A stretch of 64,000 nt of DNA from Cyanidioschyzon merolae (taxonomy: Eukaryota), in assembly GCA_000091205.1 (NCBI GenBank), contig AP006490.2. One strand, written 5' to 3'. The notes beneath the pieces are model-generated. The model had not been told where the DNA came from, did no database searches, and saw only the letters and a list, made by a program, of their open reading frames with translations. Within the stretch, counting starts at the first letter, position 1. Each line of letters starts with the position of its first letter. The position numbers and the translations under genes were made by a program. Shown piece after piece: positions 1,346 to 14,008 of the stretch.

Positions 1346-2954
1346 TTAGCAGGCAACAGCTATAGCATTCACGCGACTATCTTTCAGAATACGTGCTGCA
1401 CTTGTCCATACGCGGTACAGTCCTTCTGCATATGGCATGATACCTTCCGTGCTGTCAGAGCCGAGCGCTGATCCCCATATCTTGCGCAAAAGTTCAACCC
1501 GCGCAGGCCACAATACAGCATGTGCCACAGTGTGCGATGCATAGGTCCCGTAGCAACTAACAAGAATTCCGTCTACCACAAGGCGCCCTGAGCGCGTCAG
1601 CGGCGCATAGAGGCCATCACTCGTAACGAGAGTGTCAATTGCCACCACGGGGTCCGGCAGGTGCGCAGCAATGTCGAATAAGGCGTCGCCTATGCGGATA
1701 TCTTCTGCGAAAACCGCTTCACCTACAGACGTCTCCAGTTCGAGGATCTTCTGTATGTGCTGCTCTTTCTCATGTGAAAGACTCGACACAGCTGTCATTT
1801 TGCGGCCCGGGACTCTCGGGTTCTCGTTCATCCGGTACACCAGATGCTGCCTCGTCAAGCGCAGCTCCTTCCCCGAACGCGTCTTGATCAATAGGATTTC
1901 TGCTGTGGCGCGAGTCTCTTTGTGCAACCACCCCAGAACTGTGTCCTCGACCAGTCGCCCACGTGAATCGACGCCGATTACGGTCATACCCGGGCGCAAT
2001 TCGCTTATCCGCCGCGTCTTGCCAAGACCATCAATAAGCACCGAAGCACCCGCTGGGAAGCAGACCGCAGCGCCGCCACCCACAGAAACCTGTGTAACAT
2101 TTGCTGTCGGTGAAGGCGTCACTGAGACGGTAGGCGTAGGCGTTGCTGAAGTTGTCGGTGTTGGTGTCGGTGTCGGTGTAGGTGTGGGTGTGGGTGTTGG
2201 CACAACTTTCGGAGTCGAGATCGCCACGAGACTCGCTCCACTTGGCAGGATACTTGGAACGCTACTTGTAAAATTGGTAGAGATCTTCGTCACGTTGGAT
2301 ACGAGCGCGGTAGGTGCTAAGATAGAGATATTGTAGCTTGCATTCACTGCTGATGTTGCGCTGAATACACGTTGAACGTCGAGGCTGCTTCTCTCGTACC
2401 AGTCGGCGAACCGCGAGGCTATTGACACGAAGATACTATCGCAGTTATCCGACACAGTGACGTTCGCTCCAGTTCCATTCAGCTTGGTTTCTAAGTTATC
2501 CTGGAGAACGACCGCAACATCAACACACACGGTCTTGTTCACCACACTGACCACCGCAGAGAATGCAACACCGGCTATTGCCGGGGTAGGCGTAGGTGAC
2601 GGTGTTGCCGTCGGCGTAGGTGTTGGTGTAGGTGTCGCAGTTGGCGTTGGTGTCGGTGTCGCAGTTGGTGTTGGCGTCGGTGTAGGTGTCGGTGTCGCGG
2701 TTGTCGTAGGCGTAGGCGTTGGTGTTGCAGTTGGTGTAGGTGTCGGTGTAGGTGTCGCGGTTGCCGTAGGCGTAGGCGTTGGTGTTGCAGTTGGTGTAGG
2801 TGTCGGTGTAGGTGTCGGCGTTGCAGTTGGCGTAGGCGTTGGTGTCGCAGTTGGCGTAGGTGTTGGTGTCGGCGTTGCAGTTGGCGTAGGCGTTGGTGTC
2901 GGTGTCGGTGTCGCAGTTGGCGTAGGCGTAGGCGTTGGTGTCGCAGTTGGCGTT

Positions 2955-2989
<35 letters not shown>

Positions 2990-4909
2990 TGCAGTTGGCG
3001 TAGGCGTAGGAGTTGCAGTCGGTGTTGCAGTTGGTGTCGCAGTTGGTGTTGCCGTCGGCGTAGGCGTAGGCGTAGGCGTTGGTGTCACAGTTGGCGTTGG
3101 TGTTGCAGTTGCCGTAGGCGTTGGCGTAGATGTTGGTGTCGGTGTCGCGGTTGCCGTAGGCGTAGGCGTTGGTGTTGCAGTTGGTGTAGGTGTCGGTGTA
3201 GGTGTCGGCGTTGCAGTTGGCGTAGGCGTTGGTGTTGCAGTTTGCGTTGGTGTCCGAGTCGGTGTCGGTGTAGGTGTCGGTGTTGCAGTTGGCGTAGGTG
3301 TAGGCGTTGGTGTCCCAGTTGGCGTTGGTGTCGGCGTTGCCGTCGGCGTAGGCATAGGCGTTCGTGTCGCAGTTGGCGTCGGTGTAGGTGTCGCAGTTGG
3401 CGTCGGTGTAGGTGTCGGCGTTGCAGTTGGCGTAGGCGTTGGTGTCGGTGTTGCAGTTGGCGTAGGCGTAGGCGATGGTGTCGCAGTAGGCGTCGGTGTC
3501 GGTGTTGCGGTCGGCCTAGGCGTAGGTGTTGGTGTTGCCGCCGGTGTCGGTGTAGCGGTCGGCGTAGGCGTCGGTGTTGCGATGTATAATGTGAAGAGGT
3601 CGTTAAGGGGACCTGTGCCGCCTTCGCCTCCGAACAGCACCGGGTCGTTTTGACCGGTATTCCAAAGAACTGCATCAGCTCGCGGAGGTGGAAGCGTTGT
3701 ATTGCTTGTCTTGTTAAGCTCGCCGTAACTATAGGCTCCATCCGTTGTATTGTCACCGTCTACCCAAGTCCATTCAAGACTCGTAATATTGAACGTCCAC
3801 AGGTCGTTGCAGAAACCGGATGAATAACCACCGAAGAGATACAGAGTATTTGACGAGTCTACAAATCCAGAGGAAAAGGATCTGTACCCCGGAGTGTTAC
3901 TCGATGACGGCACTCCTTTCTCGCCGTATACCGACCCATTCGAACCAACACTGTCATTTCCAGACATCCAAGTCCATTCTCTGGAGCTGATATTGTACAG
4001 CCATAAATCATTGAGACCGCCAAATGTTTCAATCTGTCCGAAACCTCCAAAGAGCCAAAAGTTCCCATCAAGGTCTCGCCACGATGTGGCTCCGTAACGT
4101 CCCGCGGGATAATTGCTCGGCGATGCCTGGCGAAACGCACCATAGCTTCCGGAGGGGTCCAGCTCTTGGGTGCCACCTATCCAGCTCCATTCGTTGGTCA
4201 CTGTGTTGTACTGCCACAAGTCACCGTAAACAGTTCCATTAGGACCAGATCCACCAAAGAGATAAAACTGGTCATCCAAGCCAACCCAGGTCGCCGGTTG
4301 GTAACGACCGCCAGGCGTGTTGCTTGAAGACGACTTCCCAAGAGGACCATATGTCGGGGAAACGTTGGTCTCGTTGGATCCCTGCACCCATGTCCACTCG
4401 CCCGACGATACATTATACATCCACATATCACTATAGCCCGAGCTCAAATTACGGCCTCCAAATAGCCAAAGGTTTCCGTTGCTGTCACTCCATGCAGCGG
4501 ATTGCGTCCTCGAAGGCGGATTGTTGCTTTTGTTGGGAACTCCGAGGTAGCCGTATACCCCTGCAGAGTTGAGGGATGCCGAGCCTCCAACCCAGGTCCA
4601 AGAGAACGTGCTCAGATTGTAGTTCCAGAGATCACCGAAGACGCCGTCCGAGTTGCCACCACCAAACAACCAGAGCACTCCGTCAGCGCCGGTCCAGAAG
4701 GCCGCACCGTACCGCGCCGGAGGCACGTTGCTGGTGTTCGGCACACCCTGAACACCGTAGCTACCTGAACTGCCGGTAGAGTTACTGCCACCGATCCAGG
4801 TCCATAAAAAAGTATCTTCGGAGGACAAAACTCCACGAACTGCGTGCGTTCCCGACACAACCAATACTATAACGAGGAGTTTCAATATAGAAAAATATCT
4901 TTTTCGCAT
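1346..4909 (-). CDS. Secreted multidomain protein: signal peptide, six kelch blades, a roughly 330-aa Pro/Thr linker, a roughly 125-aa N-glycosylation-rich domain of unknown fold, a second PT linker, and a C-terminal hedgehog-type Hint/Hog autoprocessing domain
   Basis: The ORF 1346..4954 starts at GTG. The first ATG at 4907-4909 gives [23 protein letters not shown], which is signal-peptide-like. Six repeats of the kelch/galactose-oxidase type follow, e.g. [33 protein letters not shown], each with W..W and YG..G signatures. The C terminus reads [43 protein letters not shown] ... [21 protein letters not shown], which aligns with the hedgehog Hint module (CFPG...LSPGDRVLA...[21 protein letters not shown]). 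Confidence 0.8.
2570..3595. repeat. Imperfect hexanucleotide/dodecanucleotide tandem array, (GGYGTNGGYGTN)n on the + strand, which encodes the (TPTPTA)n linker on the - strand; a shorter copy lies at about 2090-2225
   Basis: The ggcgtaggtgttggtgtcggtgt-type unit is visibly reiterated for about 1 kb. The translation is an almost pure T/P/A tract. Confidence 0.85.
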
Positions 4910-5707
4910 ATAGGATACGAAAGGGGTTCTGCACCAGTGAAAAGAAAGCGCCACTGAGAGAAACGAGTTGCTTAGAATCTCCAGGGATAGGAGAGACTCC
5001 AGCTGCTGGTACTGTTGTCACTGCTGTCTCCGTCCTTACCACCACCACTCTCAACGAAGTATTCTGAGGTAAGCAGCACGGGAGCGCGTCAAGCACCGCC
5101 TTCTGAATGATGCAGATCTGCGCACGGCGCTCCCGAAACGGGACATTTCTGGCATAAACGGACAAAGATATTTTGCAGCGTCTTCTACCGAGTTTCATGA
5201 TGGCGCTCTCGTAATGGCAGTACAAGATAGCAGTCTACGCCGCAGTCGTGTTTCAGATACACATGCAGAGTCCAAATATCGAAAAAGGCTAATGGCGTGC
5301 CCGTCGCACATTCGGACCCGGCCCGCTATGACGCAGTACGAACAACTCCCTCTTACTGCACGCCATCTGCATATTTGTTGGCATCCCGTCTAGGGGGAAG
5401 TTTGGTGTCCAGATACCCTCAACATTGGATTATGGGCCGCCAACCCGGACTGGAAGGTTGCGTGCATGCACGTGCGAACTATATTACACAACTAAGATCC
5501 TCATGGAATCAATATACCAATAACTGAAACATAATTTAGTTCTGTGTTCGCGCGCGGGGCCGTACGGATAGCTGGCGTCAACGCAGTGGTTCATACTGAA
5601 GCACTTGCTGAGGCACGCGTCGAGGTCGACACCAATACCGACGCACCTGGAGACGCAGTTGCAGTCGCAATAACGGCACTCGGAGTCGGCGTAGGTCTAA
5701 TCAACAA

Positions 5708-7036
5708 TCACTCGTTGCTGATGCACTCCTGATCAGAGCGGCAGCAACGCACCTTGTTCACAAGGTTATCCGAAGCGATCAGGTATGTCCCGCACTGCTT
5801 CGTAGGGTCCTTGCACACACAGAACGACGGCAGCAGCGCCTGTTGTTGCTGCTGTTGTTGCAATTGCTGCTGCTGCTGCTGGTTGTTGTTGTTGCTGAAG
5901 GGGTTGTACGTGCAGTTCTGCGTCCTGGCGTTGCAGCACTCGGGCCCGCATGGAATATACGTCGAGTTCGATACGTTCCCGGTCGTGCTGCTCAGCGAGT
6001 TCGAGATGTACCCATACGCCTGACACACGTGCTCAGTAACCGGCTGGAAGCACTCGTTGCCGAGCTCCAGGCAGCAACCAGCCTCCAGACACTGCTGCGG
6101 TGAGTAGCTCATGCGCAGCGTCCCGTGCTGCTCTCCGTACACGAGCGTGTTCAGCAGACGCACAAACTGGCTACTGTTGATGTTATTGTTGGTCAGCTGC
6201 TGGTTCTGATTCAGCGCGTTCGTGCACGGCTGGCGCTCAAACTCGCCCACCGCGCACGTCTTCTCGGGCTGGAAGCAGTACGGGTTCGACGCAAAGTCGC
6301 TCTGCTGCTTGCCGTTCTGCACCCACTGGTTCTGCGCCTGCGAGTCGTAGCAGCAGCCCTGGGCATAGTAGGTAAACTGGTTGATACCCGCGTTGCCGTA
6401 CGGCTGGTGATGCGCTCCCGGTGACGGGCAGACGGGAACCGTTGCCTGCACCTCCTGCAGCGCTACAGAAGCCTGCGGTGCATGGTTGATGTCGTAGTAG
6501 CACCAGGGTGCCAGGATGCCGTTCGCTGTGGGCTGCCAGCAGCATCCCGGTATCGCAGAGCACTCGTCGGGGTAGATATAGCTCCAGCCGCAGGGGACGC
6601 GCTGCGTCACTGGAACAGCGCTGCACGCCGATGAGACGCTCTTCAGGGTGCACGCGTTCGTCTGGGAGCTGAAGCAGCACCCGACTTGCTCGCAGCGTCC
6701 TGGTTGATGCACTGTCCTGGAGATCCGCAGAGCTCATTGGAGCAATGGGGTGGGTGTCCGCGTAGGTTTCGGTGTTGGAGTAGGAAATGCTTTCCTCAAC
6801 GCATAGACATCATTGATAAAGTCACTGCCGCTCGTGTTTATGTATCCATTTCCAACAAATACGATCGGATCAGTCCTACTAGTGTCCCAGAAAGCTGATC
6901 CATAGCGAGTACTTGGTACACTATTCGGGCCTGACTCGCTCAATGCCCCATATACTGCTAGAGTATTCACTACCGAGCTTCCATTAATCCATGCCCGTTG
7001 ACCCAGTTTGATATCGAATACCCACAGATTGTTCAA
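5708..7036 (-). CDS. Paralog of the kelch/PT-linker family: one kelch blade, a PT linker, then trefoil(P-type)-like cysteine-rich modules and a poly-Q/N tract. The frame is interrupted by a single in-frame TGA at about 6734-6736, so this is a possible pseudogene, a read-through, or an assembly error
   Basis: ORFs 6734..7036 and 5708..6712 share one frame: ...PTPKPTRTPTPLLQ * ALRISRTV HQPGRCEQVGCC.... The segment NNLWVFDIKLGQRAWINGSS...RYGSAFWDTSRTDPIVFVGNGY...NDVYAL...PTPTPKPTRTPTP aligns with the last kelch blade plus linker of the upstream gene. CSAVPVTQRVPCGWSYIYPDECSAIPGCCWQPTANGILAPWCYY fits the trefoil pattern C..R..CG...C...GCC[FWY]...PWC[FY]. Two more GCC[YL] modules follow. A possible signal peptide (MKRTEVVIDIAIAMTYFV) is out of frame at 7033..7239. 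Confidence 0.5.
5838..5895. repeat. CAG/CAA (CTG/TTG on +) trinucleotide tract encoding NNNNQQQQQQLQQQQQQQ
   Basis: The sequence ctgttgttgctgctgttgttgcaattgctgctgctgctgctggttgttgttgttg is visible on the + strand. Confidence 0.85.
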
Positions 7037-7382
7037 ACGTCTGCAAGTTCGCCTCTATTGCCGTATCCTTTATGGCAAAAAGAGTTACAGATTACCCAAA
7101 TAAACGCGCTCTGCCCTCTTGAACGACCACAGTTAGCAGTCTCTGGCGCATTCGATACGAAGTAGGTCATAGCTATAGCTATATCAATCACTACTTCAGT
7201 ACGCTTCATGACTTGCGAAGCAATTTTGGTTCTCCACATCAGGAGGAGTGCCCACCCATCCGTTCAATATCCGATCGTGACTGTGGGATGCCGTCTCATC
7301 GGTACGCTGTTGCTCCCACATTTGTCTTTGAAGCAGCGGTCTGCGCTTTGAAGGCGCATCTCATTTTCATCACTAACAAACC

Positions 7383-8488
7383 TTAGACAGGGGCCAAGAT
7401 AGTCGACTTGAGGCCTCGCCTCCGTAACGCCTGGTCGATCAGATCAAGACTCAGTTCGTAAAGCTGATCTGCCTTGTCGATTTCGTACGTTGGTTCAATA
7501 ACCTGCGGTTTCGTCTTCTCTCGACCTTCGGTATATTTGCCACGCCACTGATAATACGAGCCCGAGTCCGAGAACTGTCCCTGGGTCGCCACTTCGGCTA
7601 CGCGGCGGCCGGCCTCGTCATTCGGAAGGTATTGCCGAGTGATATACTTTTGAAGAATCGGAAAGAATACGTACCGGAACCAGCCACGCTTTTCGCGGAA
7701 GAGGTTGCTGTCGGCGACACATCCCGGAAAATCGCCACAGAGGTCACCCCGTCGCGGCCGTATCAATGACCGAGCGTCTTCATTGATAAAACGTTCGCGG
7801 CTTTGGCGTCTTTGAAAGCTGTTGTGGGCTCAAACGGGCCACTGTCCACCATGCCCGTCGTCTGCGGACCGAGCCCCGCGGCTAGACCAGATAAATCCCC
7901 GAGACGGGCCTGCGGGAGGATCTTTCCCGGCAGCGAATTCGGCGAGTGGGTCTGAGTCGTCAGAAACACAATGTGCCTGCGCGATATTTTCATCTTCGGC
8001 AACAGCTCCCGACATAGAAGCAAATGGCTCAGATGGCATACCTGCATGGTTTTCTCGATGCCGTCCACCGTGAAACGCGGTTTCTTGTCCCGCGGATGCC
8101 ATATTGTGGCATTGCAGATCAGGGTATCCAGGTGATCGACGCGCGCCACACTTGACAGCTCTCTTACAAACTTCAACACAGAGGCGAAATCAGCCATATC
8201 ACAATGCAGCACGGTATAGGCGTCCTTTAGAAGGTTTACGCTGTTTGCTGCGCGCTCCGCCCGGTCGACGTCACGACATGCCATGACGATGTGCCAGTTG
8301 CCCTTGTTGATCAGAGCGTGAGCTGCATACAGACCGACTCCAGCGGACGCGCCAGTGATCACAGCGATCTGTGATTGCTTCGGGCCCATACGAAGATGCA
8401 GCGCGTGGTGCCGGCGCGCCCCAGGCAAACGCAGCACTACCAAGGCAGCAGATGCTGGCAATGGCGACGATGTCCCGCTGCGAAGCAC
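7383..8488 (-). CDS. POR: Light-dependent NADPH:protochlorophyllide oxidoreductase (LPOR) homolog. Its reading frame is broken by a 1-nt frameshift at about 7763-7766 and it lacks an ATG-initiated transit peptide, so it may be a pseudogene or an assembly error
   Basis: The 5' ORF 7763..8488 carries IAVITGASAGVGLYAAHAL, GNWHIVMACRD, AYTVLHCDMADF, LICNATIWHP, CHLSHLLLCRELL, LGDLSGLAAGLG and FKDAKAANVLSMK. These match the POR motifs KWHVIMACRD, DSYTVMHLDLAS, LVCNAAVY, LGDLRGLAGGL and YKDSKVCNMLTM. The 3' ORF 7383..7766, in another frame, continues with GDFPGCVADSNLFREKRGWFRYVFFPILQKYITRQYLPNDEAGRRVAEVATQ, which matches [47 protein letters not shown]. The first in-frame ATG, at 8387-8389, sits directly at the Rossmann fold. 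Confidence 0.75.
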
Positions 8489-10347
8489 CCGTCAGGTGCG
8501 GTACGCAGCAGGAACGGTGCTCGAGTTGAAGCGGGCGTACAAAGAACGTGCCAGTCCATTTGCAGGGGACAAGAAACGAGCAGGGCTTGCGTTTTCTAGA
8601 TTTGATTTTTTTCCGGTGCGAAGGCTGCCAATGACCTCAACAACAATACAAATTCGCTTAAGCATGCGTATCCATTCAAAAACCTCTTTTGCGTAGCTGC
8701 ACGAGTGATCGTCCGTCCATTGATGCAGATGCCAACCTCAATCTCCCGTAGACTGTCTAACTTTGAGCACAACCCACACAATCGCCGAATGTCCTTTTCA
8801 GAAACTAGGCAAGACTCCCATTTTTCTCGAGCAACAACCTCGTCAGTGCTAGTCGCTAAGCGCTCCGCAGTGCTACGCTCAAAGAATACGAAGTTCGCAG
8901 ATGAACTTCGACAGAGCTCGCCAACGGATACCGTAGAGGAGGTATAAGGGAATTTCCTCCGGTGGTATGTTATTTATGGAAGCGCCTGCACGTCAGTTGG
9001 ACACGTGATGTGTAGGGCGGGTCGCTCGCCACTACTGTGGAAGGCCGGCGACAACGTTTTTCTTTTCAAAGGCATTTGTTGTTGACTGTGTCGCTTCCGG
9101 GCTCGATGGACGGGTTAGGCTCCTCAAACTAACCTTATAGAGTAGATCAAAATGCAGTATGTCCTTTTGTCGGGTTCCTCGATCGTTCCAGGCTAGATGC
9201 AAGTCTCAAGCTTCGTGGAAGATATGGACGCAACATGTGTGCTATGCCTCTGCCAAGATCACCAGAGCTAATCGACGTAGCGGGAGCCAGAAGTTAGACA
9301 AAGACGGTAGCATGGCAATGACTTGAGCTCTCATCAGTGCCAGCCCATGACGTACGACAGAGGCACAATTCAGGTCAGTTCCGTATTCCAGTGTCCGTGC
9401 ATGATGCATAGCAAGCCTGGGGAATAAACGTATATCCATGTTCGAGAACACTACCGTGCCTATTTTGGTTACGATCAATACAACTGAAGAAACTCTTATT
9501 GAGTAGAATATTGCATACCTTATCCACACAAGTCTAAGCCGCAGAGAAAGATACGCTTTTGATATGAGCATCGCGGGGTTTCGTGCCAGGCCCTGCATCT
9601 CCACGTATGTCAGGGCGGTACTGCGATGGGCAGTAGCGTCGGCTCCAGCGAGAGAGCCTACAGCAAGAGATCGTTCTACGTGAGTTTGCGATCTACGATA
9701 CTTTATGTTTTGCGGCAGTGCGATGCGAACACGCATGTGCCAAGGCGGGGTGTCGGACACGTGTCCTTCATCTACCTGAGTAGCGTCGCGCGCAGTGGAT
9801 GCATTGCGCTAAATGAGCGCAACTGGGTGATCAGGCAGTCAACTGACACGATGCGCATGCCGTTGTTGAAGGGAAACGCGATCTCGATCAGAAGCGTGTT
9901 GTTCAGCTGCAAAAAGTTGGATTTCCGTTGAGGACATAGCAAAGTGTAGTTTTCTGTTCGTTTTTGTTTCAGCCCTCGAACAAGTCTAGTCAAGTATTTT
10001 TTCGGAGTATATAACAGAAGCGTTCAAAGAGCGTTGTTTTTCAAAAAAAAACTAAAAAAAGGAACCTATGAAAAAACAAGTAGACGATCCTGGAGGCCCA
10101 GGGTCGTCGGCTGCTAGAAAAAAACAAAAAACATTGCCGAGCCCAGAAGAAAAGGAGGATGACAAGGACCGAAGGGGGTAGGTCCTACGTCGAAGGCGGC
10201 AAGAGAGACAACAATACAACGAGATGGTAGTAAAAAACCTGTCGTCTTGGACATATTAAGGATCCGTATAGGGAAAACTTACATGTCGCTATCAAAAAAC
10301 GTGTTGCGTCATACTCCAAGAGTATTGTCAAGGCGCCGTCTGGACTC

Positions 10348-12440
10348 ATGCATTTGGTGACGGAGATGTATCGCGACGTTACGAACATCGTAACGGTCGA
10401 GATTCCGGACGAGTTTTTCGACAAGACCTTTTTTTTTCGTCACATGATGCACGGTACAGGGGAGGCGCGGAAGGAAAATGTGCTAGTAGATGCCTTTCAC
10501 GAAAAGCATCCCTTTTACAGATTCGAGGGTACTCGGCACAAAGGTGACCGGGATATTTACACATACAGGCCGATAAAGTACCTCACGAATCTGAAGAACC
10601 ATTTCAGAGTGAATCTCGAACGTTTCATGATCTGCGCCGTGTTTGCACTCTATCCGGGCCTATCTCGCAATGCAAAATGGACGATGATCAATGGCATCAC
10701 GAACGATCGAAACTATGGAAATGGGATCGAATTCGTCGGAGAGAAGGCATCAAACGAAAGCGCGAGCGAAGCTTCCGTAATCCGTGCGGTTATAGAAGAG
10801 CACCGTGCGGTACTGTGGTTGGCGAATCCAAGAGACAAGATATCAGAGTTGAAAAAAGATAAGGAAAGATACTTTCGCCTCGTCCTGCGCTACTTTGTGT
10901 TTCTGGACCGAGAACTTGAACGCAAAGCGGAGATGAAGCTGATTGAGGAAAAAAATGAAGAGTGGGAGAGACGGAAGGCTATCCTTATGGGGAAGCGCTT
11001 CAACGTGGTTCTAATGAGCAACATCAAGTCACATTTTGTTACTATTGACTCCGGCGTCCTTCACGGCATCATGCAGGAGATCAGTCCCGAATTCAATGAT
11101 AGTATGGACGACTTCACCGGTGAAAACCGGGAGACGTACTGGAAGAGTAACTTCCAGTACAAACGTCTCAAAGTCAGCAAGCAAAAGGTATTCACTGGGA
11201 TGATCGAATCAGATGGAGTAGCCTTGTGTGTACACTATCGGCGGTTGAAGAAAGATCGGCCAGTCCCTTTCTCGGCTGCGCCCGTCACGAAGGATGAAGA
11301 AATGGAGGAGACTGGTCTTGCGACGCAGAAAGTGCAGGATAATGTCTTTCTCGTTGACGCGGCGAAGGTGGAGAGGAGAAGGAGGCGGAACTTACGACGC
11401 AGGAGGTGGAGGATAACGACCTCGTCGTTGGCGTGACAAAGGATGAAGATGAGAAGGAGGCGGATCCTGTGACGCAGGAGATTGAGGGGCACGAACTTGT
11501 CGTGGACGTGACGATGGATGGAGATGAGAAAGAGGCGGGTTCTTCGACACAGAAAGTGCAGGATAACGACTTTGTCGTTCGCGCGGACCCTGGGAACCCA
11601 ATTATCATAACCATCGCTCTACCCAAGCGTGCGGAAGATTGTAACGACTGTAACTTGCGTCAGAAAGACATGCGTCTGTTGAGATTCTCGAGAGCAAGAT
11701 ACTATCGAAAATCCGGTATAATGAATGCTAGGAAGAAAATTGAGACGTGGAATTCATGAATGAAAGAGCACCTGGGAGCTATGTGCGAGGTGACGAGTCG
11801 CGTAGCGGACTTGGAAGCTTTTCGGAAATTCGTGGAAGTTCGTGTTGCCCATTGGGATGCACTGTGGGAGGAGTATACAAAGCCCCGGTGCGCTCGTCCG
11901 CAAATGAATCTATACGGCGGAAGGCAGCTGGCGTTTGCCAACTTTTTCAATCAGTTGGGCGCCTTCAAAAAGGACAAGAGTCAAAGACTAGTAGTAGCGT
12001 ACGGAGCAGTGCGCTGGGCGCCCAAGAAAGGCACTACGCCAGCTCTAACGACAAGAACGTACAAGGAGTGCGCAAGGCGTTTTGTTCCAATACCTGTAGA
12101 TAAGTTTCGAACATCGTATACACACCATGAACTGGGGTGTACACTTGAGAGAGTGGAGATGGAAAAGTGCCAACGGAGTCCTGAGAATAAAACAAAGTAC
12201 GGACCGCTGACGGAGGAGGAAATGGAAAGGAGGGCAAAAGTGCGAGGATTGCTTGCACTGGTGAGTACATCCAGTGATTGCAAGAAACGTATGGAGTTTA
12301 GTAACCGAGACTTTAATGCCACTATCAATATATTAGGAGATGTGCGATGCTGGAGAAGAGACCTCCAGAATAGTCAAGATGGAACTTTATTGGACAATCC
12401 TGCAAAGCCGCGCTATATGAGAAATAGTTGGAAGCACTAG
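10348..12440 (+). CDS. TnpB/Fanzor-like RuvC-fold nuclease gene (OrfB_Zn_ribbon type). It is disrupted by one frameshift at about 11360 and one in-frame TGA at 11757-11759
   Basis: Three ORFs make up the gene: 10348..11436 (a genuine ATG start), 11406..11759 and 11760..12440. The C-terminal part has [21 protein letters not shown]...C...C, which matches the TnpB V..VdP.yTSq.C..CG box. It ends with [12 protein letters not shown], matching the RuvC-III D[RA]DxNAAxNI motif. The N-terminal part has a RuvC-I-like [12 protein letters not shown]. The protein is about 690 aa if joined. Confidence 0.65.
11285..11600 (+). repeat. Four tandem copies of an 81-bp unit encoding a 27-aa acidic repeat ([VT]xDE[ED]xxEAGxxTQKVQDNxF[LV]V[DR]A) inside the Fanzor-like gene
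   Basis: The four copies are [50 protein letters not shown] (in a shifted frame), [25 protein letters not shown] and [25 protein letters not shown]. The frameshift lies between copies 1 and 2. Confidence 0.8.
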
Positions 12441-12628
12441 TAGGTGGCCGGTCCAAGAATACTGGGAGGCGTCTGCACATCAGTTCAGGACGCTATGTTT
12501 AGGGCGCGATTGCTGCCACTACTGTATTCCGGTGACGTCGTTCGACTTTTAAACGGCGTTCGCAGCCGCTTCGGTCTAAGCGTGTGAATATAATTCCCCT
12601 GGGAAGCGCCAGTTGTGGACACTTGCAG

Positions 12629-14008
12629 ATGGCAGGGTCACGAGCGAGCAACCTGAAACAAACCCGCGAAAAGCGCCAGCGCGCTGTTGCGTCTGCTTCT
12701 GCTGCCGCTGCTGTCCGCTGGGAAAGCATCGATGCGGCACTCTGCGAGCAACGGGCAACAGCGGTCACTCGTAGCCTGATCTGGGCCTACCTTATTCTCG
12801 CTGTGGTACTCGTTGTGTTCCCTGCCCTCTATACGCACGCGGAGGATAGTGGCCTGCTCTCCAGTGCGCCGCGGCTATTCGCCATGGCCGCAACAGCGAT
12901 CACGCTCGTCAACATGCTACTTGTTTCAACCAGCGTCGTCTTCATCGGGGCACGCGTGTCTGCAGCACGTGATCGGCTTCGCCGGTGGGCTCTCGAGCAA
13001 TCCCGTACCCGAGCGGGCGCGGACGACTCAGAATCGGTGGCGGCTGCGTTGGCAGCGCTCGAGCGCGAAGTCATCGGAAGAGGCGACGCGCTGCGGTTCC
13101 CCCTGGTCGCTTCACTTGGCCTGATAGCACTCTTCATGGCCATTCGGTACCTGCCGCAAAACGTTGTGCAGCTGCTCATCGGGATGTACGTTGCTCTAGC
13201 CTCGCTGGTCTCGATGACGAGTATCCTCTCGCCGCTGCTGGACCTGCTGGAGCACCGATTGCGGCAATCGCCGCGCACCAAACCGTTGGGGATGCTCATG
13301 GCGCGGCGGTTTGGACTTTTCAGGGATACGCTCTCGGTACACGGTCGAGATGTGCTGGGCATGGTGCTCGCGCTGCCGCTTCTCTACTGGTATCGGCAGT
13401 CGAGCGGTCTCGGCGCTGCGATCCTGAACAATATTTTTGCGGCAAGCCTGGGAGTTGCGGGCATCGACCTATTGGCCATTGGTGACTTTCAGACGGCTGT
13501 CGTGCTGCTTGTCGGCCTTTTCCTCTACGATATTTTCTGGGTCTTTGGCAGCGAGGCCGTCTTCGGCGACAACGTGATGGTATCGGTCGCGCGCGGCATC
13601 GACGGTCCCTTCAAATTCGTCTTCTACCGTCTGCGAGCGCGCCCTGATGCAGCGCGCGATATGTCGATGCTAGGACTTGGTGACCTGGTGATTCCCGGAC
13701 TCTTTGTGGCCCTGATGTTGCGCTTTGACCACCGTCATTTGGCGAAACCTTCACTGGCGCCCAAGCATCCCTATTTTTCTGCTACATACATGGCCTATGC
13801 ACTGGGTATGGTGACAACGTTCGTAGCGATGGCGGTGTCGAAGGCGGCGCAACCTGCGCTGCTTTACCTGGTACCGTTCTGCCTGGTGGCACCGCTGATG
13901 CGAGCCTGGCGCCTGGGCGAGCTGCGCTCGCTCTGGTATTACCGCGAACACGATGCGGAGCTTGATTCGCATCGCGAGCCGCACCAGTCGTCATGCAACG
14001 ATACCTAG
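12629..14008 (+). CDS. Signal peptide peptidase (presenilin-type intramembrane aspartyl protease, SPP/HM13 family)
   Basis: YDIFWVFGS carries the YD motif, MLGLGDLVIPGLFVALMLRFD carries GxGD, and QPALLYLVP carries PAL. There are multiple TM helices. The ORF track start at 12584 is GTG; the first ATG is at 12629. Confidence 0.85.
   Translation: MAGSRASNLKQTREKRQRAVASASAAAAVRWESIDAALCEQRATAVTRSLIWAYLILAVVLVVFPALYTHAEDSGLLSSAPRLFAMAATAITLVNMLLVSTSVVFIGARVSAARDRLRRWALEQSRTRAGADDSESVAAALAALEREVIGRGDALRFPLVASLGLIALFMAIRYLPQNVVQLLIGMYVALASLVSMTSILSPLLDLLEHRLRQSPRTKPLGMLMARRFGLFRDTLSVHGRDVLGMVLALPLLYWYRQSSGLGAAILNNIFAASLGVAGIDLLAIGDFQTAVVLLVGLFLYDIFWVFGSEAVFGDNVMVSVARGIDGPFKFVFYRLRARPDAARDMSMLGLGDLVIPGLFVALMLRFDHRHLAKPSLAPKHPYFSATYMAYALGMVTTFVAMAVSKAAQPALLYLVPFCLVAPLMRAWRLGELRSLWYYREHDAELDSHREPHQSSCNDT

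Follow-up and report, generated by a model that had tools for sequence, protein, structure and literature searches.

We find that the minus-strand interval 5708..7239 of the DNA analysed here, a 64,000-nucleotide stretch of Cyanidioschyzon merolae that we call the window, is very probably a pseudogene: the remnant of a kelch plus trefoil (K+T) gene, lodged between a POR-like gene and the kelch plus Hog (K+Hog) gene CMH001C. It is a broken, 5'-truncated member of a published red-algal family that combines kelch blades, a Thr/Pro linker and trefoil modules, and the first-pass annotation was right to suspect a decaying copy. The window is the left end of chromosome 8 (8L) of strain 10D, with exact matches within it to CMH007C, CMH013C and BAM79724 on the 739,753-bp chromosome; the telomere repeat (two copies of AATGGGGGG) was searched for across the window and was not found. 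Strain 10D has eight PH subtelomeric elements (6L, 7R, 8L, 8R, 11L, 14R, 18R, 19R); Nozaki et al. list those at both 8L and 8R (PMC1955436).

Like other K+T genes, the relic is subtelomeric and adjoins K+Hog and POR genes. CMH001C, which has been catalogued as a K+Hog gene with a signal peptide and as expressed in haploid cells, comprises a signal peptide, a kelch propeller, a PT linker of about 480 aa, a middle domain and a Hint module, and Pfam recognizes in it both Kelch families and Hint (PF01079, E=9e-36). The relic lies on the same strand as this gene, as had been noted, but on its 5' side (upstream) and not downstream of it, since both are on the minus strand and CMH001C runs from 4954 to 1346. 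The next protein-coding gene after CMH001C is CMH005C, with no protein accession between them, and a literature search for CMH002, CMH003 and CMH004 returned nothing relevant. On the other side, the POR-like gene of the PH element (described in PMC1955436) occupies two frames, split near 7766. Elsewhere in the window, a TnpB/Fanzor identity for the ORF at 11760..12440 was rejected, being a mere sub-threshold hint with no PDB match.

A complete K+T gene encodes a signal peptide, six kelch blades, a Thr/Pro-rich linker, trefoil modules T0 to T3 and a small C-terminal Cys motif. Full-length examples are CME001C of strain 10D (901 aa) and the syntenic metagenome loci L007, L008, L016 and L021; members labelled "similar to trefoil factor" include CME001C (BAM79243), CMA001C, CMA142C and CMD191C, together with CCYA04G1438 of Cyanidiococcus. 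The account of the finished genome in 2007 included "trefoil factor" genes at the ends of C. merolae chromosomes (PMC1955436), and the K+T and K+H fusions were described in 2023 and 2026 (PMC9812998, PMC13353863), so that an algal trefoil, which had been flagged as noteworthy in itself, is already on record. Among the duplicated genes of Cyanidiales subtelomeres, K+T and K+H genes with a Thr/Pro/Ala linker are the most frequent (PMC9812998), and in C. merolae the TFF-like genes number 15 and the Hog genes 17 (PMC13353863). Both haploid and diploid expression of kelch plus trefoil and kelch plus Hint fusions was described in 2026, and in published data the functional K+T genes are expressed mainly in the walled diploid phase. 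Their products are probably secreted surface or wall proteins, O-glycosylated and with trefoils that are putatively glycan-binding. The features of the relic and its neighbours are listed in Table 1.

Table 1. Features of the K+T relic and of the genes on either side of it (window coordinates)
Feature	Position	Strand	Basis or remark
K+Hog gene CMH001C ("similar to hedgehog protein"), intact neighbour	1346..4954	-	Pfam
C-terminal Cys-rich motif, FCVCKDPTKQCG...RCCRSDQECISNE	5708..5824	-	ends at TGA 5710..5708
Poly-N/Q tract, NNNNQQQQQQLQQQQQQQ	5840..5893	-	length varies among copies
T3, trefoil-like with Asn/Gln-rich insertion	6047..6256	-	weak PF00088 match, 11.4 bits
T2, damaged trefoil	6272..6430	-	two of six Cys changed to Tyr
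T1, canonical trefoil, CSAVPVTQRVPCGW...CSAIPGCCWQ...APWCYY	6494..6625	-	PF00088
T0 in-frame tail, degenerate trefoil-like, CEQVGCCFSSQTNACT	6647..6694	-	PF00088
Out-of-frame 52-nt stretch	6695..6746	-	three-way DNA alignment, lesion table, frame translations
Last (sixth) kelch blade and 14-aa PT linker, FPTPTPKPTRTPTP	6737..7051	-	open frame, ATG absent
Spurious 68-aa ORF across the deletion junction	7033..7239	-	signal-peptide-like ORF of the first-pass annotation
Junction of ~3.6-kb deletion relative to intact K+T loci	7103..7108	-	blastn and alignment
POR-like short-chain dehydrogenase	7383..8488	-	"P" of the PH element; borders the relic on its 5' side

The 5' truncation can be placed by comparison with L008, an intact syntenic locus relative to which the window is about 3.6 kb shorter. 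In blastn alignments, window positions 8881-7123 correspond to 4350-6108 of L008 and positions 7103-6746 to 9733-10090; with L021, positions 7353-7108 correspond to 4-249 and positions 7103-6807 to 3862-4158. The K+T gene starts at an ATG at 8633 in L008 and at 2765 in L021, and the deletion took about 2.5 kb of upstream DNA together with the signal peptide and most of kelch blades 1-5. With these parts missing, the locus is a pseudogene derivative and not a functional K+T member. The ORF at 7239..7033(-), which had been offered as a signal-peptide-bearing upstream segment, is a chance product of the junction. At its N-terminal end it is homologous to intergenic DNA, while at its C-terminal end (FCHKGYGNRGELADV) it is what remains of the end of blade 5, read out of register from a +1 insertion at ~7078 to a -1 deletion at ~7049. 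In the original kelch frame, a CAG codon of this blade-5 remnant has become TAA. The ORF is unlike the true K+T signal peptide (MFRARSLVRGLVVAVCLLLAATFSVS) and is destroyed in L002, where its start reads ATG-TAG, so that codon 2 is TAG, and its second ATG has become ATA.

What survives of the propeller, apart from the frameshifted scrap of blade 5, is the last blade, which is 65% identical to that of CME001C (aa 390-471, E=9e-34). Its reading frame contains no Met anywhere in 6737..7051(-), and the sole in-frame ATG between 7051 and 5711 comes 313 codons in, past T1 and T2. Beta-propeller folds cannot be made from one kelch blade.

The first-pass annotation had also recognized that the terminal kelch blade and PT linker are reused, and the segment 7036..6737(-) does align to the last blade of the adjacent Hog protein, at 29% identity and E=2e-11. 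It went on to read the locus as a recent tandem duplicate of that Hog gene, its Hint domain replaced in place by trefoil modules. The relic is indeed adjacent to the Hog gene and on the same strand, the Hog terminal blade is the best Hog match of the relic blade, and the parent K+T gene has the signal peptide, kelch (six blades) and PT linker layout of CMH001C; moreover, the L021 K+T variant keeps a Hog-type middle domain ahead of its trefoil part, and a Hint relic lies 3' of the K+T gene in L004 and L007. We nevertheless regard a recent duplication as very unlikely. The 29% identity to the neighbouring Hog blade contrasts with 65% to K+T genes on other chromosomes, and K-domain identity between the two families is 40%. 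Both Cyanidiococcus and Cyanidium have K+T genes (in the former with 68% identity and 100% coverage of the L008 K+T query), so the fusion is older than these genera, and Cyanidium also has a trefoil-only gene, CDCA10G3079, outside the subtelomeres. Pairwise identities point to the relic falling within the K+T clade, far from CMH001C. Where the duplication reading does hold is at the level of the family: the K+T family (CME001C, L007, L008, L016, L021) is a paralog of the K+Hog family with trefoil modules in Hint's place.

Hog proteins, as Burglin is said to have described them in 2008, are Hint-module proteins without a Hedge domain. Unlike them, the relic has no Hint module: neither Pfam nor tblastn with the Hog Hint region detected one in 5708..7239, and the module is confined to the neighbour at 1346..4954. 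Because the C-terminal module is trefoil and not Hint, autoprocessing is not expected.

Between the kelch and trefoil parts of the relic lies an apparent in-frame stop. There is a TGA at 6734-6736 and it does sit in the frame of both parts, as had been proposed, but it is not the only thing that separates them. Relative to intact relatives, the relic has lost 2 bp between 6747 and 6746 and 1 bp between 6695 and 6694, and this pair of deletions throws 17 conserved codons out of frame. Read in another frame, the 52 nt between the two deletions encode (H)CSNELCGSPGQCINQDA, the conserved sequence with which trefoil-like module T0 begins, and the supposed TGA comes from reading AAT-GAG in the wrong frame. 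The relic thus has no continuous ATG-initiated frame, only the frameshift pair with its TGA and one late ATG. Metagenome contigs L005, L006 and L015 have the same 2-bp deletion, and L018 has the same 1-bp deletion. Peptides spanning PYGNAGINQFTYYAQ, for example, would be particular to the relic copy.

If the TGA were bypassed by read-through, programmed frameshifting or a small intron, and an upstream exon supplied a signal peptide, the locus could be a functional chimera. The blade and trefoil parts do share one frame but for the TGA, a GT...AG pair (GTAATC...TTGCAG, about 7096..7042) lies upstream, and the counterpart of the relic at 8R is annotated and has RNA-seq signal. However, the conserved T0 residues around the TGA sit in another frame, so that read-through would give a scrambled T0, and the GT...AG pair joins incompatible phases. 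The ORF that would supply the signal peptide is neither conserved nor similar to a K+T signal peptide, the single blade could not form a propeller, constraint is relaxed and Cys residues have been lost. We therefore consider a functional chimera very improbable. An intron that removes the TGA or links the upstream ORF to the kelch frame was rejected, as the only tidy GT...AG pair is out of phase and the TGA segment is conserved coding sequence, and an alternative genetic code or read-through was rejected because orthologs show a frameshift, and not a sense codon, at the TGA site.

Scarcely credible, and largely refuted, is the view that the gene is intact in the organism and that its TGA and broken frame were introduced when homopolymer runs were misread or misassembled: the three missing bases do lie in or beside short homopolymers (CCCCC to CCCC, a base lost from an ATCT/ATT run, and GC(A/T)TGC to GCTGC), but lesions common to independent contigs are not sequencing errors, the finished 10D genome is 100% complete (PMC1955436), and repairing the indels would still leave no ATG or signal peptide, five blades gone and two trefoil Cys lost.

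The Cys-rich modules of the relic pseudogene are, by their profile matches and cysteine patterns, genuine P-type trefoil domains. The first-pass annotation had seen the trefoil consensus in them and had named the Trefoil and PAN/Apple profiles as a check on 5708..6712; of these, Trefoil (PF00088) matched three stretches of the ORF 5708..6712(-), with E=6e-10 and 39.2 bits against a curated gathering threshold of 21 bits, while hmmscan at E<=1 returned Trefoil alone and no PAN/Apple match. T1 by itself scores 45.3 bits (E=8e-12, profile positions 1-42 of 43) and has the six-Cys spacing C-x9-10-R-x2-CG...C-x4-GCC[FWY]...PWC[FY]. T0, once repaired, scores 20.9 bits, over profile positions 12-33 only. 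T2 has lost cysteines at PYGNAG (6403..6386) and FTYYAQ (6376..6359), where both codons are now TAC; it scores 16.3 bits, under the cut-off, whereas the ancestral version with its cysteines scores 32.4 bits, and these cysteines are kept in intact copies and in the trefoil-only Cyanidium protein (P0007). The Cys pattern of T3 is conserved across the K+T family. A poly-Q/N tract follows the modules, as had been described. The terminal TGA codon of the relic is a Cys codon in P0003, P0004, P0005 and Cyanidium P0007; in L002 the codon is TGG and the frame runs on into a Thr/Ser-rich tail. The P-type fold has three loops and 1-5, 2-4 and 3-6 disulfides; an AlphaFold2 model of the ortholog P0007, built from a 7-sequence alignment, has a mean pLDDT of 42, too low for comparison of folds.

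T1 shares with metazoan TFF1-3 and other P-type domains the full six-Cys pattern and the R, CG, GCC[FW] and PWC[FY] signature. It aligns in the PDB to TFF3, TFF2, TFF1 and the trefoil domains of maltase-glucoamylase and sucrase-isomaltase, with all six Cys conserved residue for residue against TFF3 (6v1c) and TFF2 (1pos), and a K+T family profile retrieves TFF3, TFF2 and TFF1. In metazoans, P-type domains also occur N-terminally in maltase-glucoamylase, sucrase-isomaltase and GAA, whereas in K+T proteins the modules come after a kelch propeller and a mucin-like linker, on the C-terminal side. Unlike metazoan trefoils, T0 and T3 are degenerate, and T3 carries an N/Q-rich insertion. The published view allows either homology or convergence between metazoan and Cyanidiales trefoils (PMC13353863).

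Compared with annotated K+T genes, the relic retains the Thr/Pro linker followed by T0-T3, the poly-N/Q tract and the C-terminal Cys motif, and its trefoil region is 88% identical to that of CME001C; it differs in lacking the signal peptide, an ATG and five of the six blades, in a linker cut to 14 aa, in T0 being out of frame and in T2 lacking two Cys. A further relative is CMH282C (BAM79920, 373 aa), a "T" variant without a signal peptide that lies beside the K+Hog gene CMH283C at 8R. The two are mirror-image relics at opposite chromosome ends, with trefoil regions 85% identical, and both are truncated to the end of the last kelch blade. Unlike the 8L relic, CMH282C is annotated, keeps its T2 cysteines and is one continuous ORF, whose initiating ATG arose within the blade relic in a shifted frame. 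It also has RNA-seq signal (TPM ~65 in 10D, to which multi-mapping reads could contribute), so that such relics may be transcribed, a point that tells against the pseudogene reading.

The lesions of the relic are distributed among related copies in a mosaic fashion. The two T2 changes, C122Y and C132Y, are also found in L010, L013, L014 and L018, and all four combinations of the 2-bp deletion and C122Y occur across copies. Full-length L007 and L008 are free of these lesions, as is L004, the 5' end of which runs off its contig. The trefoil part of the truncated metagenome copies L002 and L011 is free of disabling lesions, which also speaks against decay of such copies. dN/dS is 0.11-0.19 between intact copies, 0.26-0.32 between the window copy and any other, and up to 0.64 between lesioned copies. 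These values point to relaxed constraint on the window copy; since its dN/dS is well under 1, decay would either have begun recently or have been countered in part by conversion from functional copies. The sharing of lesions in different combinations suggests recombination among subtelomeres.

In the ancestral state, a full-length K+T gene for a secreted protein adjoined the Hog gene on its 5' side, as survives in L008, where the Hog ortholog directly follows the K+T gene; the original order appears to have been P - K+T - K+Hog. The ~3.6-kb deletion took away the upstream region together with the signal peptide and blades 1-5, after which the remainder gained the 2-bp and 1-bp deletions that jointly mimic one in-frame TGA. 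Further lesions are the indels and stop in the blade-5 remnant, the two Cys to Tyr changes in T2 and the TGA at the conserved terminal Cys codon. We infer that the copy makes no functional protein. Relic copies on different chromosome ends or in different strains may exchange sequence by recombination or gene conversion, and K+T and K+Hog may themselves have arisen long ago by a swap of C-terminal modules behind a shared cassette of kelch and low-complexity linker. It is conceivable, though unlikely, that the truncated K+T relics of PH elements, this one among them, form a transcribed archive that undergoes gene conversion, both among relics and with functional K+T genes, and so diversifies secreted kelch/trefoil surface glycoproteins. 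The mosaic lesions, a dN/dS of about 0.3 despite disabling lesions, and the RNA-seq signal at 8R are hints in that direction, and such an archive would be akin to the pseudogene reservoirs for surface-protein variation in some parasites.

The finding is an ordinary one, with little import beyond annotation, as the family is already published. What is new is that a decayed and unlabelled K+T relic lies between the POR-like and Hog genes of the PH locus at 8L, and that the same relic occurs in related metagenome contigs with the POR-relic-Hog layout; the apparent P - K+T - K+Hog ancestry, the -2/-1 frameshift pair that passes for a stop codon and the mosaic lesions are further small additions. 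These observations may be of use for pseudogene curation and for studies of subtelomeric gene turnover in Cyanidiophyceae.

We have found that the locus at window 5708..7239(-), which carries a kelch blade, a PT linker and trefoil modules, is a pseudogene, truncated at its 5' end and frameshifted, whose family is known and annotated. The first-pass annotation had seen a single TGA separating the kelch and trefoil parts of one reading frame; the TGA is present, but it is the product of a frameshift pair and not an isolated nonsense codon. Close metagenome relatives, syntenic with the window and 92-94% identical to it in DNA, encode ...RTPTPICSNELCGSPGQCINQDACEQVGCCF... in one frame, and the residues CSNELCGSPGQCINQDA are encoded in another frame in the window. 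A three-way alignment places deletions in the window of 2 bp between 6747 and 6746 and of 1 bp between 6695 and 6694; three bases are thus lost and the flanking parts share one frame, while the 52 nt between the deletions are read in the wrong frame, turning AAT-GAG into ..A-TGA-G.... The 2-bp deletion is common to metagenome loci L005, L006 and L015 and the 1-bp deletion to L018, so both are inherited mutations rather than errors in the assembly of strain 10D.

A scan of metagenome contigs gave 16 further loci. Four of these (L007, L008, L016 and L021) hold a kelch domain of ~450 aa in frame directly before the linker and trefoil region, and their ORFs begin with a signal peptide, MFRARSLVRGLVVAVCLLLAATFSVS.... 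The L008 gene of this kelch-trefoil (K+T) class encodes 865 aa and has a POR-like gene on its 5' side and, directly on its 3' side, the ortholog of the window Hog gene; from this gene order, L008 represents the window locus in its intact form. About 3.6 kb present in L008 and L021 is missing from the window, homology stopping on the upstream side at window 7123 (L008) or 7108 (L021) and resuming on the downstream side at 7103. The lost segment comprises roughly 2.5 kb of upstream DNA and about 1.1 kb of coding sequence, the latter spanning the signal peptide and the bulk of blades 1-5. The upstream ORF taken for a signal peptide crosses this junction, with an N-terminal part that corresponds to intergenic DNA and a C-terminal part made up of the blade-5 remnant, and it is broken at codon 2 in L002. 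Nor is the locus downstream of the Hog gene, as had been supposed; in the direction of transcription it lies upstream.

The kelch blade had been regarded as reused from the Hog gene, yet it is only 29% identical to the adjacent Hog blade versus 65% to the last blade of CME001C (E=9e-34). A cluster look-up revealed annotated family members in 10D itself. CME001C (BAM79243, 901 aa) is a full-length K+T gene, 88% identical to the window trefoil ORF. CMH282C (BAM79920, 373 aa; 85% identity to that ORF) is trefoil-only, lacks a signal peptide and adjoins CMH283C, a kelch-Hint (K+Hog) gene, at the right end of chromosome 8. Kelch domains of the K+T and K+Hog classes share 40% identity over their full length. 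The idea of a paralog with trefoil in place of Hint stands as an ancient change in the family but not as a recent one here.

The trefoil assignment is correct by profile and structural-database matches. ORF 5708..6712(-) scores 39.2 bits against Pfam Trefoil over three stretches (cut-off 21) and has no PAN/Apple match, a profile also proposed for it, in the Pfam search. Module T1 by itself scores 45.3 bits, T0 and T3 match partially or weakly, and T2 scores 16.3 bits in the window version versus 32.4 with the two cysteines found in relatives restored. In the PDB the family profile matches TFF3, TFF2, TFF1 and the trefoil domains of maltase-glucoamylase and sucrase-isomaltase, with all six cysteines aligned in TFF3 and TFF2. 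The kelch blade, PT linker and poly-Q/N tract were likewise found as described.

Features of the locus and its neighbours (window coordinates)
Feature	Position	Strand	Details
K+Hog gene CMH001C	1346..4954	-	1202 aa; kelch repeats and Hint PF01079, E=9e-36
Poly-N/Q tract	5893..5840	-	
Trefoil T1	6625..6494	-	45.3 bits alone; nearly whole Trefoil profile
TGA	6734-6736	-	apparent in-frame stop
One kelch blade and PT linker	7051..6737	-	open frame; linker 14 aa
Blade-5 remnant	about 7100..7052	-	CAG->TAA change, +1 insertion, -1 deletion
68-aa ORF	7239..7033	-	crosses deletion junction
POR-like short-chain dehydrogenase, 'P' of PH element	7383..8488	-	split into two frames near 7766
Repeat element adjoining PH element	~9758..12560	+	ORFs 10348..11436, 11406..11759, 11760..12440

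That the locus is decaying, as first suggested, is borne out by the truncation, the frameshifts and the loss of two T2 cysteines to Tyr (C122Y and C132Y), changes shared with L010, L013, L014 and L018. At the position of the terminal TGA (5710..5708), several relatives and Cyanidium have a Cys codon and L002 has TGG, and the sole in-frame ATG between 7051 and 5711 sits after T1 and T2. Most truncated copies have stops, frameshifts or Cys losses of their own; no disabling lesions were found in full-length L007 and L008, nor in L004, which is cut off on the 5' side by the end of its contig. In the trefoil region dN/dS is 0.11-0.19 for intact pairs and reaches 0.64 for lesioned pairs; comparisons of the window with any copy give 0.26-0.32. 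Full-length L016 (608..2917) combines an intact kelch domain with a premature TAG at trefoil-region codon 227 and a Cys->Arg change, and decay thus extends beyond the truncated copies. All four combinations of the 2-bp deletion and C122Y are present among the copies, which suggests that the copies have undergone recombination or gene conversion with one another; recurrent mutation is an alternative source of the same combinations. We also note that the trefoil region is seemingly joined to unrelated sequence in P0010 (a 1.6-kb JGI contig; C2/ribosomal-L39-like N-terminus, then trefoil region) and in L006 from ~917 onward (trefoil region, then a TatA-like region), either through subtelomeric rearrangement or as assembly chimeras.

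Other copies bear on the architecture of the family. In L021 (2765..5079) the K+T linker holds the Cys-bearing middle domain that sits between PT linker and Hint in the Hog gene; L021 has an intermediate architecture, kelch - PT - middle domain - PT - trefoil. In L004 (2578..2948) and L007 (3950..4320), ~1.2 kb downstream of a CME001C-type K+T gene, there is a frameshifted relic of the Hint C-terminal half, 34-41% identical to the window Hog; it represents either the remains of a Hog gene next door or a vestige of the module displaced by trefoil. The closest matches to the K+T kelch domain (L008 8633..10040; also window 3600..4909(-)) beyond Cyanidiales come from bacterial kelch-repeat proteins, with 34-43% identity across roughly half of the query, and the kelch module may have a bacterial origin.

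Three long window ORFs match CMH007C (BAM79713), CMH013C (BAM79719) and BAM79724 of Cyanidioschyzon merolae 10D chromosome 8 (739,753 bp) exactly, and by gene numbering the window is the left end of that chromosome, 8L. According to the finished-genome paper, 8L is one of the ends with a subtelomeric PH element, P being a protochlorophyllide oxidoreductase and H a hedgehog-like protein, and the subtelomeric genes include 'trefoil factor' genes (PMC1955436). CMH001C, annotated 'similar to hedgehog protein', is of the K+Hog class with a signal peptide; its linker has ~480 aa of (TPTPTPTA)n repeats (~2460..3650(-)), which produce a spurious 398-aa Gly/Val-repeat ORF on the opposite strand. There are no protein accessions between CMH001C (BAM79710) and CMH005C (BAM79711), the latter probably the signal peptide peptidase ORF 12584..14008, so the pseudogene and the POR-like gene are both without protein annotation at 8L. 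For this reason the POR-like gene, whose halves are ORFs 7763..8488 and 7383..7766, is probably another pseudogene; its L008 counterpart is open across the split junction but has an early stop elsewhere. The adjoining repeat element, which metagenome loci L017 and L022 contain twice, may be a degenerate mobile element; ORF 11760..12440 gives only a sub-threshold hint of a Cas12f1/TnpB-like TNB domain (PF07282, E=0.64) and no match in the PDB.

The K+T architecture is already published. Genes in which a Thr/Pro/Ala-rich linker connects kelch with either trefoil or Hint are the most prevalent subtelomeric duplicated genes in Cyanidiales (Cho et al. 2023, PMC9812998), and the same authors noted CDCA10G3079 (P0007, from Cyanidium), trefoil-only and non-subtelomeric, which is also the best named match in the present analysis. 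For C. merolae, a 2026 Plant Cell paper gives 15 TFF-like genes, expressed mainly in diploid cells, and 17 Hog genes, expressed mainly in haploid cells; it does not settle where the trefoil domain came from (PMC13353863). The locus is a real sequence feature, but one of low interest, lying in a well-studied genome and belonging to an annotated family.
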